Below, piece after piece: positions 27,849 through 39,974 of a stretch of DNA of 46,537 nt. The notes under the pieces are model-generated. The model did not search any database and had not been told where the DNA came from. It was given only the letters and a program-made list of their open reading frames with translations. Source of the stretch: a virus. Its lineage: Duplodnaviria > Heunggongvirae > Uroviricota > Caudoviricetes. Location of the stretch: IMG/VR virus record IMGVR_UViG_2563366953_000003, one strand, 5' to 3'. How positions within the stretch are numbered: position 1 is the stretch's first letter; each line of letters opens with the position of its first letter. The position numbers and the translations under genes are program-made.

Positions 27849-28337
27849 ATGGCTACCAACCCAAGAGAGCACGCCCGGCGAGTGCTGGACACGTTCTGGT
27901 GCGGGCGTGGTTTCCCTGTTGATCCAGCGAAAATTGCTCACGACATGGGATTAGATGTTTTTATTACCGATCTTCCTGGGAAAGTTTCTGGCGCACTGAT
28001 TAAACAAAAAGATCAAGATCCAGCGATCTTTCTAAACAGTGATGACAACAAAGTTCGTCAACGTTTTTCATGTGGGCATGAGTTGGGGCATTACATCGCC
28101 CGGCAAGCATCGCATAGCGATGAATATGAGTACGTTGATTTACGTGGCGAAACCGCAAGCGCCGGAACGCATCCTGATGAAATTTTTGCGAACAAGTTCG
28201 CAGCAGAACTTCTGATGCCGGTTGATGAGGTCAGAAAACTACACGCTGACGGCCAACCAAGTTATATAATGGCGCATTATTTTGGCGTATCTGACGATGC
28301 GATGACTTATCGTTTAAAGAACTTGAGGTTGGGGTAA
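27849..28337 (+). CDS. ImmA/IrrE-family zinc metallopeptidase (M78-like)
   Basis: 162 aa with HEXXH motif (SCGHELGHYI) in the typical ImmA context; GGAGG RBS 6 nt upstream; opposite strand to flanking phage genes. Confidence 0.7.
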   Translation: MATNPREHARRVLDTFWCGRGFPVDPAKIAHDMGLDVFITDLPGKVSGALIKQKDQDPAIFLNSDDNKVRQRFSCGHELGHYIARQASHSDEYEYVDLRGETASAGTHPDEIFANKFAAELLMPVDEVRKLHADGQPSYIMAHYFGVSDDAMTYRLKNLRLG

Positions 28338-28346
28338 CGCTTTAGA

Positions 28347-28952
28347 ATGCCATCGGATGACGATTTTAACAGCCGTTTCAAACAGGAAGTTGCACGCCGA
28401 CTGAAGGATTCCCTCAACCTACACCGTCAGTTAGCAGAAGAGGTTGAGCCGGAGGAGGATGAAACTCCGGTTCAGTCTCCTGATGAAACTTCACCTCAGC
28501 CAAAGATTTCGCACGCCCCCAAAAAACCGTCTGTCCGTATTCACGGAATAGCCAGAAAAAGAGCTGCCGAAGCTCGCAAAATGGCTGTAGCTGCGTCAAT
28601 CAAAAGAATTCCAACTGCTACACTATCTCAACAAGTCACCCGTACTGAGAGTAAAATCTTGACCGAGTTCACATCAGTGAAACAGGTGAATTCACTTGAT
28701 ACTGAGCATGAGCGCAAACAACTCAACAACAAAGATTTTGAAGCTGAAATCGATCTAAAAAAACGCTATGGCAAATGGTTCCTGATTATCCTTGCTTGCC
28801 AGCTTTTAATAATGAATGGTGTATTTTTTGCCACTGGTGCTGAATGGCTTGTATTTAAAGACTTAACGCTCCAGTTGTACATGGGCGGTACTTTGACAGA
28901 GGTATTCGGCCTCGTGCTGGTCGTGACAAAATACCTTTTTAAACGCAAGTAA
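28347..28952 (+). CDS. Membrane protein: charged low-complexity N-terminal region, two C-terminal TM helices
   Basis: 201 aa, 9 nt downstream of the ImmA-like gene (operon). Hydrophobic segments WFLIILACQLLIMNGVFFATGA and LTEVFGLVLVVTKYLF. Confidence 0.5.
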   Translation: MPSDDDFNSRFKQEVARRLKDSLNLHRQLAEEVEPEEDETPVQSPDETSPQPKISHAPKKPSVRIHGIARKRAAEARKMAVAASIKRIPTATLSQQVTRTESKILTEFTSVKQVNSLDTEHERKQLNNKDFEAEIDLKKRYGKWFLIILACQLLIMNGVFFATGAEWLVFKDLTLQLYMGGTLTEVFGLVLVVTKYLFKRK

Positions 28953-29010: not shown

Positions 29011-29554
29011 GTGCGTTGAAAACAGATAGTTATTCCCATTAGTTCCAACGTAATACACATCAAAAAAATCACCATTCTTTTGCTCTAACGTCAACACCTA
29101 CCCTTAAAAGAATAATTCTCTAAGAATGAGAGAATGTTGTGTGTATTAGATAAGATATGAGCTGACACATCTATGGCGTGGAGCCGAATTTAATTTGACA
29201 GTCCACTTTGTGCCAGGAACGGACCTTAAGAAACTATCCGTAATCTTCAGGCCGATTTGTATGTCTATACCTTACAGAACTGCCAGGAGTTATTGATATT
29301 TGATAGTCGGTGAATAGCTGGCGACAATCCCCCCATATATTATATAGTAAAGATAAATTACAACTAAAAAATCATAAAAAATATCATCCATGCCTGTATA
29401 GTTTTTTAGAAGGGCTGTTTCATATGAAATGAATGCCAAAAAAATTTAGATCATGTTTTTATTTCCACATCTTTTGAAGATTTTATTTTCAATATTATCT
29501 ATCTCTTTCCTCACCCATGAATTTTCTCCAGCAGAGATAAATTAAAAAATCTCA

Positions 29555-30907
29555 CTACGCATCTATTTCGGCATAGAACATTCGCAAAATAAATTTTCTA
29601 AAGTGCTGGTGGGATTTAAGGAAATTGACGCCTAAGTATGGCATGTCTCCATGAAGAGGGTGGTTTTCCAATCCGTTATTCTTACAAAAATCATAATCTA
29701 ATTTAAGAATGTCAGTATAGAGATGTCGTATTAAACCTGTAGACCTAATAGCGAAGTTATTACAGAAAACATCCTCAAGTAGAGACCTTTGATAGATTTC
29801 CCAATTCATAAAGCCATATTCAACGTGGACGTATTTCCCATCTGTATTTCTAGTGGTGAGTTCAATTACCTGCTTACCTATACGATATAATTGAGAGATC
29901 CATGTACAATGTAAACCACTTAGGACATCAATATTAGCCTCATATAGTTCTCCTTCACCTAGTTTACCAATTAATTCAGATATGTGAGGAGTGTAAGAAT
30001 TTGGGTCTGGAATATCATCATAGTTGTCGTCTTCTGTGGATAAATGCTGGACACTCCCGACAGCATAAGGATTCATGCCAACTAGTACTAATGAATTCGT
30101 AAAAGGTAATGCCTGAGATAATTCAGGCCATAACTGAGAGCAATAAGTAAAACCATGAACTCCAGATTCTTCCATATACTGAGCTGCAAGGCAGGAAATG
30201 TTATCAAATTGACTAACAAATGAATGTAAAAGTTCTTCTCCTCTAGCTGCATCCCATCGCTCTGCGTCATACTCCCAGGATAATTTACAGACACTAAAAC
30301 TATCTTCTCTAAATGCAATATTTGAGAAAGTCGCTAACTCTGTTTGGTCTGGAATCCATAATTCAAGTTTAAGAGAGGTAATATCAAGAGGATCAGAGAA
30401 TGTTGGAATTAAAGTAATGATATCCCTATTGTCAAATATTAAACTTTGGATGACAGCATCACGTGCTATTCTGGTTTCCATTGGTGATATTAAAATATAC
30501 ACACTGTCATTTTTCGTCATGGATGGAAATAATGTTGTCATATGGTTTGAATATGCTAACAATTCAGTGAATGCTTGCCTTTCAGTTTGTTCACTTTTTT
30601 TAAGCTCTATGACAGCAAGCCCAGTATCATCACAGAATATAGCCAAAAAATCGGCTCTAATTGTTGAGTTTGAATTTTGTTCTAAAGGAACTTCGCAGCC
30701 GATAAATTCCAGTCCATAAAGCTTAGAGTGAAGATTGGATAGTTTACTATTTATTCTGTTTTTTATTAGCAGTTGTGCTGTTACATCAGAGAGATCTTCG
30801 TTGAATTCAAGTACTTCAAGACCTGCAGGTTCAATAAGCAGTTCGGGAAAATTGTTCCTATTTTCCCATATGTAATTTTGTATTTCCTTTTCTGTGAATT
30901 TAATCAT
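29555..30907 (-). CDS. Hypothetical protein with N-terminal PD-(D/E)xK-like nuclease signature (AT-rich island cargo)
   Basis: 450 aa; IRADFLAIFCDDTGLAVIELKKSEQ has the D...(D/E)xK pattern; strongly AT-rich codon usage unlike the flanking phage genes. Confidence 0.5.
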   Translation of the reverse strand: MIKFTEKEIQNYIWENRNNFPELLIEPAGLEVLEFNEDLSDVTAQLLIKNRINSKLSNLHSKLYGLEFIGCEVPLEQNSNSTIRADFLAIFCDDTGLAVIELKKSEQTERQAFTELLAYSNHMTTLFPSMTKNDSVYILISPMETRIARDAVIQSLIFDNRDIITLIPTFSDPLDITSLKLELWIPDQTELATFSNIAFREDSFSVCKLSWEYDAERWDAARGEELLHSFVSQFDNISCLAAQYMEESGVHGFTYCSQLWPELSQALPFTNSLVLVGMNPYAVGSVQHLSTEDDNYDDIPDPNSYTPHISELIGKLGEGELYEANIDVLSGLHCTWISQLYRIGKQVIELTTRNTDGKYVHVEYGFMNWEIYQRSLLEDVFCNNFAIRSTGLIRHLYTDILKLDYDFCKNNGLENHPLHGDMPYLGVNFLKSHQHFRKFILRMFYAEIDA

Positions 30908-31440
30908 TAATCAACCCTTATTATTACTTATATAATTGCCACCATCTTGATGGTTATAAAATTATGTACAATTAATTATATTTTTTAAAGTTACGGCCTT
31001 CAGTGTTCCCTAATGTACTGTTTCATATGTAATGATATCTATACTGTCTCATCTAGCAAGGTTACAAACAAAATTTTTCTTCCGGAAATGTGATCATGGC
31101 GATAAATCAACATGAGAGTTTATCTACATTGTACATAGTTAAAGCATAAGCAGGTGTGAGTAAGAAACTAGAGCATACTGAAGATTCGCTTGCTCACTGG
31201 AATTACACAATTTTACTGAGTGGATGGCGTTGCATCGACCCGTTGAACTCACAGCCATGAGCGGACATGTTTTACAGCGGAATAAATTCAGCATAGTTAG
31301 TGGATTTACACGGAGGATTAGTTTTTGAGAAATCTTGATAAAATTGTAGAGCTTGTTAATATGAAAACAAGAAATTAAACTAACAGTCAAATAAAGAAGC
31401 TCAAACACATCCCCTACTTAATTGAAAAGGATTATTAGCT

Positions 31441-32340
31441 ATGATTGCCCCACTTATTAGTAACTTACAGAAAGATATTGCGCTACTTCAGCTTTATATC
31501 GAACAACGCAAACAGACTGGCTTTCATGACATGGAAAGAATGATTGAGTCATTGACCATTTATATGTTTCGCGCACTGAAAATGGGGGAACTGGAAAACA
31601 TGAATCAGATTAAAGTTAACTTTCCCGCCATTGATTTAGCTGACAATAAAAACATGATAGCAGTTCAAGTTACAACGAAAGCAACCCCGGCAAAAATTAA
31701 AAAAACAATCGCAGCCTTTGAAAAAGAAAATAAATCAGGAAAGAGTCTAAAAGACATATACCCTTTTTTATATATTTTTGGGTTTTGTAAAAGCTCAAAA
31801 TGCTCAGTTCCAAGTTATTGTAAAGTAATCGACCCCAGCTATTTTGTAAATGAACTTTGCGATAAAGCAGATGAAAATATGATCCTTGATATGCTTGATG
31901 CCATTCATCGCCATCAGGATTATACATTATTATCGCCATGGGATGATAGAGATTCACTCGAAATAATACTCAATGTTATTAATCGCAATGCTATTAAACA
32001 CAGGATGAGTTGCGAAGGAAGCATATCTGATATGCTTGCCGGTTTAAAAGAAATTAACGAAATAATTACAAAAGGTACAATCCAACGTAAGCAACGTTCA
32101 AAATCGATATCTGATTTCAAGGATCAAAGCATGGTTAAATTCCTGAGAGGTGTAATGGATGATCTGTCTGTTATTCAAGCCATAGTGAACAAATCAAAAG
32201 TTAACCAAAGTGATATGGTTTGTATTAGCTCTGAAGATATGATTAACATTGATAATTTAAAAGATAAAATTGCAAACGATTCATCAGAGATTGCAAGGCT
32301 AAATAATATTGATATAATACTAAAAATTGTTGAATTATAA
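31441..32340 (+). CDS. Hypothetical protein (AT-rich island cargo)
   Basis: 299 aa, AT-rich, divergent from the 450-aa gene across a roughly 530-bp AT-rich intergenic region. Confidence 0.45.
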   Translation: MIAPLISNLQKDIALLQLYIEQRKQTGFHDMERMIESLTIYMFRALKMGELENMNQIKVNFPAIDLADNKNMIAVQVTTKATPAKIKKTIAAFEKENKSGKSLKDIYPFLYIFGFCKSSKCSVPSYCKVIDPSYFVNELCDKADENMILDMLDAIHRHQDYTLLSPWDDRDSLEIILNVINRNAIKHRMSCEGSISDMLAGLKEINEIITKGTIQRKQRSKSISDFKDQSMVKFLRGVMDDLSVIQAIVNKSKVNQSDMVCISSEDMINIDNLKDKIANDSSEIARLNNIDIILKIVEL

Positions 32341-32667
32341 GTAGCGATTTAATAATAACAAATAATAAACAGCAGGCTTCATTGAATAATATTTATTTGG
32401 AGCCTCTTTATTGTTTATCGACTTTATTTCTTCACTTATACCTGTCCTGTTGAAGAAGACCGTTATGTACAAGAAGCTGTTAACATAAGTGAGCATCATT
32501 ATCTATGATTAGGAAAAACATGGAAAAGTTTGTACTGAATTTTTCCAACGTTTTGACAAAAGTCTGTAATCCTGCAGTAACTTGATGAGGTGGGGCGTGT
32601 TGCCCCTACCCCAGCGAGTTAATAAGTAATAAGAAAATGGCACCCTCTAATATTATTTTTAAATTTA

Positions 32668-33333
32668 CTAATTATGTTTATTTTTACCAACAACCACATA
32701 TGAACTGCCAGCTTTGCTCCATGACTTTATTACTGCTAAATTGTTATCTAAGCAAATTTTACTTACAATATTCTCATCCAATAAGCCATAATAGAAAGCA
32801 TTGCGAGAGTTTTGGTATATATATCCATGCAAATGTTTAATTCCAGTCTCATACTTTTTGAAATAAGAGCTTTTGTATTGATTAACAATAATTGCTTCAC
32901 CATCATTTTTTAATAATCTCCCAATCTCATTGATGATTTTGTAAATTGTTGATTTACATGGAATTGCGGAAAGCACGTTTGCGCAAAGTATGAAATCATA
33001 ATTATCTTTTATTTTATCTATACTTTCAAAAGGGACAACATTAGCATTTTTATAATTATTAGCCACATACTCTGGAATTGTGGTTTGTACGCCTCTGATA
33101 ATTTGCACTCTTTCTAACTGTTTTCTGGAATCTAAAAATGTCACAGCTTCAAATTTATTTACTAATTGTTCTGAATATCTAAGCTTTCCACATCCGAAAT
33201 CAAGGGCTATGCCATTTTTAACAGAATTTTCAATATAGTTACAGAGATAGTTAGATGGCATAGTATGCGGTTTTGCTGCATTTTCTGAACGTATAGTCAT
33301 TCCATTTATTTTGTAATTCAAAACTAACCTCAT
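32668..33333 (-). CDS. Class I SAM-dependent methyltransferase (small-molecule/RNA type, not an obvious DNA MTase)
   Basis: 221 aa; motif I LDFGCGKL, acidic post-I VTFLD, motif II FDFILCANVL, motif III LLKNDGEAIIV; no DPPY/NPPY-type motif. Start ATG abuts the upstream stop (TAAATG). Confidence 0.65.
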   Translation of the reverse strand: MRLVLNYKINGMTIRSENAAKPHTMPSNYLCNYIENSVKNGIALDFGCGKLRYSEQLVNKFEAVTFLDSRKQLERVQIIRGVQTTIPEYVANNYKNANVVPFESIDKIKDNYDFILCANVLSAIPCKSTIYKIINEIGRLLKNDGEAIIVNQYKSSYFKKYETGIKHLHGYIYQNSRNAFYYGLLDENIVSKICLDNNLAVIKSWSKAGSSYVVVGKNKHN

Positions 33334-34041
33334 TTAAAAAATACTGTTATTATTAAAAAATTCCTTTATCTTATCATCAGGTATTTGTCTGACTTGGCCT
33401 TCAGTTCTGGGTTTAACGGATGCAATAAAAATAAGAAAATTAAAGACAACAATAAAAATAACCCACAACCAAAGATTTTTTAAAGAACCGGTTACAGAGA
33501 GTAAATGGGTTATTTTAGCAAAACTTATTACTAAAACAGTAATAAATGCAATCACAGTATGTTCAAAGAAAACCCAAAAGTAATAAACCTTATTCCAGAA
33601 GAGCTCAACATAATGTTTATCTTTTAACTCATTAACTTCTGGGTAATACAGTTTGTTCATTACTTTGGAGGATTCATCACTAGTTAATTTTCTTGTAATG
33701 CCTGCAACTTGCGCCAATGGTTTAACAATTAAGTAATTATCCCATGCTTTTCTTATTCCAAGAATTTTTGCCACGTTATTATGTAGATCTAAAGCCCCAC
33801 TAATCACAGACCAAAAAATTGAGAATGCAATTGGTAATATGCCGAATGTTAATATCCACTTAATAAATTCTTCGTAGTCTTTGATTGGTGGAATGTACTT
33901 GGCATTAATTCCAACCAATGGTATGTAGCCATAAATAACCAATGATAGGTAAAATATAAATGTAGTAATAAAAGTTGCCTTATGGAGCATGGGTAACATT
34001 TCATTATAATTCTTTGGCGGTTCTAACATTTTACTCTCCAA
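33334..34041 (-). CDS. Polytopic membrane protein (co-operonic with the methyltransferase)
   Basis: 235 aa with about 4-5 hydrophobic helices; AT-rich. Confidence 0.5.
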   Translation of the reverse strand: MESKMLEPPKNYNEMLPMLHKATFITTFIFYLSLVIYGYIPLVGINAKYIPPIKDYEEFIKWILTFGILPIAFSIFWSVISGALDLHNNVAKILGIRKAWDNYLIVKPLAQVAGITRKLTSDESSKVMNKLYYPEVNELKDKHYVELFWNKVYYFWVFFEHTVIAFITVLVISFAKITHLLSVTGSLKNLWLWVIFIVVFNFLIFIASVKPRTEGQVRQIPDDKIKEFFNNNSIF

Positions 34042-34408
34042 ACATTCAGAAAACGTTAGTTTTATATAATTGCACGATTTTACTAACGCACTTAAAGTTT
34101 AAATACTACTAGTCTTTTTATTTAACACTGCAATTTTATCTAAATCTTATTGATTGATCTAGTCCTCGAAGAAGCCTGCCATACATATATCTTTTCTGAC
34201 TGCATCCACTTTTATGTCTGTCACATCCACACTAGCTCCTGTAATATTTTAAATACCTCAAATCCGTCATCAGTACCGACGCTTAAATGTTCGATCCTCA
34301 CTCACTGCGGACCCTCAGCTCAGCCAGATAGTCCGCTTTGTGACAAAAGTGGAAGTAGCTAACAAGTATCCTAAGCGCAAATAGAGTATTTCCGCCCCAA
34401 ACAACCTG

Positions 34409-35203
34409 TCAAAATGCTGAGTCAGCAACAGATACAGCCGACTTTTTTCCCATTAGCATCAATTTATCCAACGTCATACTTCGCAGGTTGTCGCTGTGGA
34501 TCACCAGATACCCAGCCCGCTCAGCGATCTCTTTGAAAGCGTCAAAGGTCATCAGATGTTCGCCTTTGGCAACATGGCGCATTCTGGTCACTTTTCCATT
34601 TTTGATAGTGGTGATAAAAGAAAAATCTGGAATGGTTGGCTGATTTTCATCGAGCAGCAGGCAGTGGATGTATTCAATCGCCTCTAACATTTGCGTCTGT
34701 GACAGTTGTTCTATGTGAGAGACGGCGAAACGTTGGTGAATCATGGTGTAGGCATCGGGATACATCATGCCTTTCTTGCCGACCAGCATATTAACGGCAT
34801 CACGTAAGGGAGTACGGTCATCGGTGGTTGTACTCCGCCTCTCTGGACGCTGGCTAAAATAACAATCTTCCAGCTTTTCGAAAACTTCCCAGGCCTGTTC
34901 TGTTTCCAGCATTTTGGCATGGCGAGCTGCGCCGCGTTCTGTCCAGAGGATGAGAGAGCGGACATTTCTGGCGATTTTCACAGGAGGTCTTAAAGACATG
35001 CTGTGCTTAAATTCGCGCAACTCCTCACCTTCGAGCAAAAAGTAATGCTTCCCGACCACGAATCGCTCTGAGTTCCGGTTATGGTTTTTACGAATGTAAT
35101 CCGGCTCTGTGCCATAGAGATTCGCGAGTAACTCGGTGGTGAGGACGGGAAGTTGGTTGTGGATAATCGGGGAGATGGCTGCTGCGGATACTTGAGTTGT
35201 CAT
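34409..35203 (-). CDS. Phage antirepressor (ORF6N/KilA-N-like N-terminal domain)
   Basis: 264 aa; N-terminal LPVLTTELLANLYGTEPDYIRKNHNRNSERFVVGKHYFLL typical of ORF6N-type antirepressors. Confidence 0.55.
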   Translation of the reverse strand: MTTQVSAAAISPIIHNQLPVLTTELLANLYGTEPDYIRKNHNRNSERFVVGKHYFLLEGEELREFKHSMSLRPPVKIARNVRSLILWTERGAARHAKMLETEQAWEVFEKLEDCYFSQRPERRSTTTDDRTPLRDAVNMLVGKKGMMYPDAYTMIHQRFAVSHIEQLSQTQMLEAIEYIHCLLLDENQPTIPDFSFITTIKNGKVTRMRHVAKGEHLMTFDAFKEIAERAGYLVIHSDNLRSMTLDKLMLMGKKSAVSVADSAF

Positions 35204-39497: not shown

Positions 39498-39974
39498 TCA
39501 TGCATGGTGGCCTTGCGCAGTGCTTATCACTGCCCCTCGCGTCGCTACCAGCGCCGCTATTGCTTCGTCAATTTCCTGAATAGTTATCTCTGGCGCGAAG
39601 TGGAGATGTACAGCGTTAATCGCTTCCACCCCTTCTTTTGCCGCCAGCGTTGCCAGCAAAACGGGATCGCCCGGCGACTCCAGACGCGCCCGCCGTTCTG
39701 CGGGTAGCACGGCTTTCATCACACTGGCCAGCACCTGAGTTTTTCGGCGCGCCGCCGTTGTCTCGCCACGTAACCAGCGAAAGATTTTCTGCCGATTGTT
39801 GTTGATGGCTCTCCAGTCCACATTGCCGTCCGCGTCCTCAAATTCATGTAGTCTCAACTCATCATTGCGTCCCTGACTGAACCAGGCCCGGCAGATTTCA
39901 ATCGTGACGAGTTCCTGCCCTGCCCTTGCCGCCCAGGTCAAAATCTCTTTTTGTAATTCCTCTGGGTTTTCCAT
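39498..39974 (-). CDS. Putative CII-like regulator (YdaT-like)
   Basis: 158 aa immediately downstream of the Cro-like gene; WRAINNNRQKIFRWLRGETTAARRK resembles my recollection of Rac YdaT. Low certainty. Confidence 0.4.
   Translation of the reverse strand: MENPEELQKEILTWAARAGQELVTIEICRAWFSQGRNDELRLHEFEDADGNVDWRAINNNRQKIFRWLRGETTAARRKTQVLASVMKAVLPAERRARLESPGDPVLLATLAAKEGVEAINAVHLHFAPEITIQEIDEAIAALVATRGAVISTAQGHHA

Follow-up and report, generated by a model that had tools for sequence, protein, structure and literature searches.

What does the solitary 450-amino-acid (aa) protein encoded in a low-GC part of this phage DNA do, and does it act alone? The sequence analysed here, hereafter the window, is a stretch of 46,537 nucleotides from a Caudoviricetes virus (IMG/VR record IMGVR_UViG_2563366953_000003). 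An original prediction, made from the letters alone, had proposed that the open reading frame (ORF) at 29555..30907 on the minus strand is a single-gene defence nuclease, with an N-terminal PD-(D/E)xK-like motif followed by about 300 aa of unassigned sequence. The ORF is real: it is complete (450 aa plus stop codon), starts with ATG and has a Shine-Dalgarno-like AAGGG 8 nt 5’ of that codon. The RefSeq entry of its protein family, WP_042097802.1, is labelled “hypothetical protein”. Our analysis supports the proposed interpretation as a candidate: the protein is very likely an active, predicted metal-dependent nuclease, we have strong confidence that its gene is an autonomous single-gene unit, and a defence role is reasonably probable.

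Is the active-site motif more than a coincidence of letters? The peptide singled out by the original prediction, IRADFLAIFCDDTGLAVIELKK, corresponds to residues 83-104 of the protein. The loose D...(D/E)xK pattern alone is no better than chance, since D-x(8-30)-[DE]-x-K is found in 87% of shuffles of the 450-aa protein and in 26 of the 36 window ORFs of at least 150 aa. When hydrophobic flanks are required, as in a strand-aware form of the motif, it is found in 3% of shuffles and, among the window ORFs, in the 450-aa ORF only. E72, D86, E101 and K103 are invariant across 52 homologs with identity down to 36%, and so are E6, Q10, R84, E109, R110, T114, E115 and Y119. E6 and Q10 belong to a conserved N-terminal stretch, F-T/S-E-K-E-I-Q-x-Y-I-W, and the catalytic core is followed by a conserved helix, Q107-T-E-R-Q...T114-E115-L-L-A-Y119.

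These residues were then placed on a structure model computed with AlphaFold2 from the family alignment. The model is a single, confident body (mean predicted local distance difference test score, pLDDT, of 88.7; predicted template modelling score, pTM, of 0.89) in which the nuclease domain spans residues 44-170 and residues 44-140 form an alpha-beta-beta-beta-alpha-beta core (alpha 44-65, beta 66-74, beta 84-91, beta 97-102, alpha 106-126 and beta 135-140). E72 falls within beta1, D86 where beta2 begins and E101-L-K103 where beta3 ends; the stretch from E72 to K103 is encoded by 30599..30694 on the minus strand. Both hallmarks of the PD-(D/E)xK superfamily are found, i.e. the core fold, and a conserved acidic residue at beta2 with a conserved (D/E)xK at beta3. 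The motif is thus real because of residue conservation and fold together, and not because of the pattern alone, and structure prediction, proposed at the outset as a check, does find a nuclease fold. The best structural match of the model is NucS (PDB 2vld), with HamA, Can2 and SduA as further structural neighbours; a Foldseek search against viral structures gave just weak, generic PD-(D/E)xK matches. Together, conservation and the predicted model show residues 1-185 (30353..30907, minus strand; N-terminal helices and NucS-like core) to be a NucS-type PD-(D/E)xK catalytic domain whose active site is complete, from which we infer that the 450-aa protein cleaves DNA.

How widespread is this protein? 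A word-indexed search returned 232 homologs and an exhaustive profile search of 1.84 billion representatives returned 409 at E <= 1e-3, of which 79 are below 1e-30. Members are nearly all 440-470 aa long and align end to end; judged by homology, the family is small yet well defined. Homologs are found in Vibrio, Serratia, Pectobacterium, Aeromonas, Pseudomonas, Alpha- and Betaproteobacteria, Bacteroidota, Cyanobacteria, Bacillus/Priestia, Campylobacterota, Elusimicrobia and one archaeal metagenome-assembled genome (Methanogenium), a patchy spread typical of horizontal movers. No model of Pfam, NCBIfam or PADLOC reaches its threshold for the family. The 450-aa protein itself has zero NCBIfam matches and a sole PHROGs match, phrog_30092, of function unknown, and neither the full protein nor the family profile gave anything usable against PDB chain sequences. 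Searching the literature for the RefSeq accession turned up no paper, and searching it for HsdR-like systems of phage-inducible chromosomal islands (PICI) turned up nothing.

The remainder of the protein, residues 186-450, is indeed unassigned sequence, as had been noted: it has no match in Pfam, NCBIfam, PADLOC or PDB sequences, and it is conserved. Residues 186-300 (30008..30352, minus strand) form a ferredoxin-like beta-alpha-beta-beta-alpha domain, as delineated by conservation and the AlphaFold2 model; this domain is very acidic (isoelectric point, pI, of 4.05) and W211, G252, F253, N271, N279 and P280 are invariant in it. Residues 301-450 (29558..30007, minus strand) consist, in the alignment, of a variable helical insert (about residues 300-360) and a conserved beta/helical region. 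Conserved in this part are W336, W369, Y372, E378, D404, an H416-P-x-H-G-D421 motif and R442, of which W336, E378 and D404 are invariant in the 52-sequence alignment. Because invariant residues are found in each, both halves of the protein are under purifying selection. A profile search with residues 186-450 returns the same family only, and the C-terminal module is therefore never seen with another effector. In the predicted model, this module is packed rigidly against the nuclease. Acidity is family-wide, with a median net charge of -23, pI values of 4.6-6.0 and the last 90 residues net negative in all members, which would not be expected of an enzyme that acts on DNA and is supposed to have a domain for reading it. 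A NucS-like clamp-binding motif at the C-terminus was considered and rejected: the conserved C-terminal residues belong to a helix predicted to be structured, and they depart from the consensus of such motifs.

A wider circle of relatives shares only part of this architecture. The exhaustive search also returned proteins of ~380-420 aa and ~700-750 aa that share residues 1-290 only. They keep the S-E-x-(D/E)-I-Q-x-W helix, the R-P-D strand, the ExK, the R-Q-A-x-T-E-L-L-A-Y helix and the H-G-F strand, so that the nuclease and the ferredoxin-like domain together make up the conserved core of a broader, entirely uncharacterised superfamily. An E-G-F-x-x-W in these short and long relatives is the counterpart of Y363-G-F-x-x-W369. 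The helical insert and the tail differ across the superfamily, and the part formed by residues 301-450 is confined to the 445-470-aa family. Pfam and PADLOC are without match for these wider relatives as well, including the ~400 extra residues of the long ones. One distant relative of 403 aa (24% identity over residues 2-277) is encoded directly 3’ of an AbiGi-family gene on an SSU5-type phage-plasmid of E. coli (NZ_CP061757.1, 5147-7206 of the examined locus) and is found on about 18 non-mobilizable E. coli plasmids of ~111 kb each. It probably corresponds to phrog_30092, and with the AbiGi gene it may form a two-gene, abortive infection (Abi)-like variant of the superfamily.

What brought this gene into the window? 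The window is 99.9% identical to a prophage of E. coli YZMc3-1 that is inserted next to tRNA-Ser and mtfA. This prophage has a contractile tail, and its early genes are lambdoid (RepO, DnaB-type helicase, Q antiterminator). The 450-aa gene is within a 5-kb island of 33% GC, the remaining window being 49% GC, and its GC at third codon positions is 0.28 versus 0.60-0.62 for the capsid and terminase genes. With the replication genes on one side and Q on the other, the island occupies a classical cargo site. Among 5,426 complete E. coli genomes, five carry the gene, and most related prophages are without it. The copy in Serratia inhibens is 82% identical in nucleotides over 2,019 bp (window about 29240-31231), and this common block consists of the ORF and ~320 bp per side (about 324 bp upstream and 315 bp downstream), nothing more. 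As far as this nucleotide comparison goes, the gene moves as a roughly 2-kb cassette. Both non-coding flanks, assigned like the gene to the minus strand, thus belong to the co-travelling unit: the AT-rich upstream flank (30908..31231), presumed to be the promoter/regulatory region, and the downstream flank (29240..29554), in which there is no conserved ORF. Weak sigma-70-like matches are found upstream at 31059-31032 and 30989-30961; promoter and terminator scans of the regions flanking the gene were not better than shuffled controls.

If the gene is mobile, does a partner move with it? Genes were called in all retrieved homolog loci (65 non-redundant loci from many phyla) and their products clustered. 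No recurrent neighbour family was found, the largest clusters being LysR regulators (6 loci), sensor-kinase-like proteins (5), large serine recombinases (5) and small serine recombinases (4). No methyltransferase recurs beside the gene, a C5 methyltransferase being found within 10 kb in just 3 of the 65 loci, at inconsistent positions; a cognate restriction-modification (R-M) pair is thereby ruled out. Because no neighbour family recurs, the gene is taken to be autonomous, and the single-gene part of the proposal holds, both on these 65 loci and on the extent of the block common to Serratia and E. coli.

The company that the individual copies keep is that of cargo. The Pectobacterium copy occupies, in a P4-like satellite, the slot between Ogr/Delta and the integrase, a slot said, in the 2022 work of Rousset et al., to be a known hotspot for defence cargo. 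The Serratia copy adjoins SIR2_2 and DUF87 genes (SIR2-HerA), the Vibrio crassostreae copy adjoins KwaA/KwaB (Kiwa), and the Bacillus toyonensis copy is in an island with Mrr_cat-pentapeptide, DAC and SLFN-type helicase genes. The Aureibacter copy follows a C5 methyltransferase, and the Aeromonas copy is a solo insertion with transketolase on one side and alcohol dehydrogenase on the other. A scan of the two nearest genes per side in every locus (237 proteins) gave GajA (Gabija), AriA/AbiLi/LmuB-type ATPases, mad2/mad3 of MADS, Type I and Type II methyltransferases, DUF4238, AbiJ_NTD4, ArdA, a PIN toxin, resolvases and rve integrases, together with several PDC candidates of PADLOC. This picture, that of a defence or mobile-element cargo gene, is supportive of the proposed role, and the defence claim is kept as a candidate on the basis of context, namely the cargo island, the P4-satellite slot and the adjacency to SIR2-HerA, Kiwa and Gabija. 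Some observations weigh against it. The same scan also gave ordinary metabolic genes, and many neighbours are housekeeping genes, especially for distant homologs. A tblastn search against GenBank phages returned zero matches. Finally, the association with defence genes is qualitative and is taken as supportive rather than conclusive.

Together, these results lead us to an explanation towards which we lean slightly: the gene would be a self-contained, horizontally mobile unit for a metal-dependent DNA endonuclease, most likely protecting the lysogen against other phages or mobile elements. In such a mechanism, the NucS-type catalytic domain (residues 1-185) would cut DNA, and the family-specific ferredoxin-like and helical module (residues 186-450) would decide when or what the nuclease cuts, i.e. 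it would gate or target cleavage. Because the gene moves without a methyltransferase or any other partner, discrimination of self-DNA would have to be intrinsic to the enzyme. The C-terminal module could recognise a feature of invader DNA, such as a modified base or else a structure formed in replication or recombination, and thereby license cleavage. The leading form of this explanation, which we put forward tentatively, is a methyltransferase-independent, Type IV-like restriction enzyme reading an invader-specific DNA feature; it is suggested by Madara and END-Mag, two NucS-like fusions that work in this manner. Equally tentative is the possibility that the acidic ferredoxin-like and helical module acts as an immune sensor or gate of a new type that responds to something other than the known modified-base signals, e.g. 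a phage protein or a DNA structure, and defines an unrecognised superfamily of single-chain sensor-nucleases. Such a superfamily, were it to exist, might take in the 445-470-aa family, the 380-420-aa phage-plasmid form with AbiGi and the ~700-aa forms sharing residues 1-290 and the EGF-x-x-W strand. The biological role of the 450-aa protein would presumably be protection of the host or lysogen.

The other genes of the island raise the question of whether the nuclease belongs to a larger system. The original prediction had pointed to divergent transcription from a 299-aa gene (31441..32340, plus strand) across an AT-rich spacer, and this layout is correct: the spacer is 533 bp long with 33.4% GC. 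The 299-aa gene, SMEK, is part of a low-GC three-gene cassette (window 31260-34188) which also comprises a methyltransferase (32668-33333, minus strand) and a membrane protein (33334-34041, minus strand). The N-domain of SMEK matches PADLOC Aga_REase-PNTD1-PNTD2, an REase-type effector of Argonaute-associated proteins, at E 5.9e-20, and SMEK is counted as a nuclease domain of short prokaryotic Argonaute (pAgo) systems (PMC10810196). The methyltransferase is a class I S-adenosylmethionine (SAM)-dependent, small-molecule/TehB-like enzyme with a weak mad2 match. The trio is usually found at other prophage positions and looks like a separate candidate defence unit. The Serratia-shared block stops at ~31231 and homology to the trio starts at ~31260, which suggests serial cargo insertion at one prophage hotspot. 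Two independent cassettes thus meet within the AT-rich spacer; their divergent arrangement is accordingly incidental, and the functional pairing that it might imply falls away.

Several rival explanations were weighed against that of a stand-alone immune nuclease. One would make the 450-aa protein a component of a multi-gene system with all three proteins of the SMEK trio, e.g. an R-M-like system in which the methyltransferase protects self-DNA. Physical adjacency, divergent orientation and the common low-GC island would fit such a system, but the trio is present in 151 of the 5,426 E. coli genomes and the 450-aa gene is missing from 146 of these, relatives of its three proteins are absent from all 65 homolog loci, and the homology blocks end and begin at about 31231 and 31260. 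In addition, the trio methyltransferase matches small-molecule/TehB-type and not DNA methyltransferase families. A functional unit with the trio is thus ruled out by distribution, and we consider the multi-gene explanation very improbable. More improbable still is a housekeeping role as a mismatch-repair endonuclease of NucS/EndoMS type: the order of the domains is reversed, the NucS N-terminal domain is missing, no member matches the Pfam NucS model, and the gene is rare, patchy, low in GC and on mobile elements. Moreover, E. coli already has mismatch repair by MutS/MutL. Membership of the SMEK-trio system and a housekeeping NucS role are both effectively excluded.

Two further explanations take the nuclease as given and differ on its purpose. 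The protein could be a trigger-activated nuclease of the abortive-infection type, in which the acidic C-terminal module restrains the nuclease or senses a phage protein, and binding of that phage protein leads to indiscriminate DNA cleavage and cell death. The family-wide acidity of the module is easier to reconcile with protein binding or DNA mimicry than with DNA reading, the module is tightly packed on the nuclease domain in the predicted model, phage-plasmids pair a distant relative with an AbiGi-family abortive-infection gene, and HamA, Can2 and SduA, the structural neighbours, are all nucleases that stay inactive until they receive a signal. Against this, no antitoxin-like partner is conserved across the 65 loci, and acidity is weak evidence because ordinary restriction enzymes are often acidic. 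We regard this mechanism as unlikely. Somewhat less likely again would be a nuclease without immune function, serving its carrier elements in recombination, processing of replication intermediates or structure-specific resolution, or else a selfish, addiction-type hitch-hiker in cargo regions. NucS, the best structural match, is a repair and branch-processing enzyme; serine recombinases/resolvases are among the commonest neighbours (9 loci), ArdA and rve integrases being present too; and several copies are amid housekeeping genes. However, the gene is located in an accessory low-GC island outside the conserved replication/recombination modules, in a prophage type most relatives of which do without it, and its carriers are of wholly different kinds (lambdoid prophage, P4-like satellite, chromosomal islands) with no common replication strategy. 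The absence of matches in GenBank phage genomes also speaks against an element-serving function. A self-contained nuclease that would protect the lysogen remains the explanation towards which we lean.

The prophage carries additional genes of accessory character. At window 27849-28952 (plus strand), an ImmA/IrrE metalloprotease gene (CapP-like, PADLOC E 2.4e-25) is directly followed by a gene for a 201-aa phrog_5346 protein with a hydrophobic C-terminus; this pair has no adjacent helix-turn-helix partner and is possibly a protease-controlled switch or a further cargo module. By correspondence with the annotation of a near-identical prophage, an ORF6N-domain protein is encoded next to the island (34409-35203, minus strand) and a YdaT-family toxin near the immunity region (39498-39974, minus strand). 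The latter two are further accessory or toxin-type genes of the same prophage.

At present, the 450-aa protein is one plausible candidate among many. If its role were confirmed, a widespread, uncharacterised single-gene nuclease family (about 400 clusters at 50% identity) would join the anti-phage repertoire, and with it a regulatory/sensing domain without known counterpart. The 2-kb stand-alone cassette might also be of use as a reagent, should the enzyme be selective for modified or structured DNA.

How does this protein compare with known systems? The closest tested parallels, each from a recent preprint, are Madara and END-Mag, two NucS-like nucleases joined to a sensor of modified bases. 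Madara (PADLOC candidate PDC-S11) of E. coli ECOR34 is a single gene whose product has a NucS-like PD-(D/E)xK nuclease at the N-terminus and an EVE-like domain at the C-terminus; T4 with glucosyl-hydroxymethylcytosine (glucosyl-hmC) is restricted and T4(C) is not, defence is abolished by D63A, and the Madara locus is AT-rich, H-NS-silenced and divergent from BREX (10.64898/2026.09.05.749240). The 450-aa gene is similar in being a single gene, in its N-terminal NucS-like nuclease followed by a non-catalytic C-terminal domain, in lacking a methyltransferase and in its AT-rich divergent locus. It differs in that its PDC-S11 match is weak (E = 0.027, 11.5 bits) and confined to residues 68-126 against profile positions 45-97 of 358, i.e. 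53 positions wholly inside the nuclease core. Its C-terminal part is also not EVE-like (PUA-superfamily), and the protein as a whole is about 90 residues longer and appears to be rigidly packed instead of linker-tethered. END-Mag, a NucS-like nuclease fused to an inactive EndoIII/Ogg domain, acts alone, restricts phages whose DNA is hypermodified and targets those with modified G (PMC12191111). The 450-aa protein shares with it the NucS-like PD-(D/E)xK nuclease joined to a C-terminal part, a layout that in END-Mag illustrates a modular nuclease-plus-sensor logic, but it is without the inactive EndoIII/Ogg helix-hairpin-helix sensor domain of END nucleases. Membership of the Madara or END-Mag family was accordingly rejected: the PDC-S11 match covers the nuclease core only and neither sensor type is present.

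More distant comparisons point the same way. NucS/EndoMS (PDB 2vld) is an archaeal and actinobacterial mismatch and branched-DNA endonuclease whose nuclease is C-terminal, behind a dimerising DNA-binding N-domain, whereas the 450-aa protein has an N-terminal nuclease and 265 unrelated C-terminal residues and is mobile and rare, not housekeeping; Pfam NucS (PF01939, DUF91) has no match to it at E <= 1 and none in the 52 members at E <= 0.05. The only Pfam model touched is HSDR_N (PF04313) of Type I HsdR, over the beta2-beta3-alpha2 segment (residues 76-127), with a sub-threshold signal in 22 of the 52 members; but this match scores 18 bits, below the gathering cut-off of 25.1, which none of the members passes, and there is no helicase/translocase domain and no HsdM/HsdS. 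HamA (Hachiman), SduA (Shedu) and Can2/Card1 are PD-(D/E)xK defence nucleases restrained by an attached or partner domain. In contrast to these, the 450-aa protein matches no PADLOC model of HamA, SduA or Can2, nor the DUF4263 and DUF1837 profiles (Shedu SduA and Hachiman HamA, respectively), and its gene has no HamB helicase, CARF domain or cyclase neighbour. With Type IV restriction, it has in common a nuclease without cognate methyltransferase. The 450-aa family, its C-terminal module and the wider superfamily are undescribed in the libraries and literature searched. Well known, on the other hand, is the general kind to which they would belong, namely nucleases that carry a sensor on the same chain and are found as defence cargo. 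Confirmation would extend a theme already apparent in Madara and END-Mag, that of NucS-type repair nucleases repeatedly recruited to immunity via different sensors.
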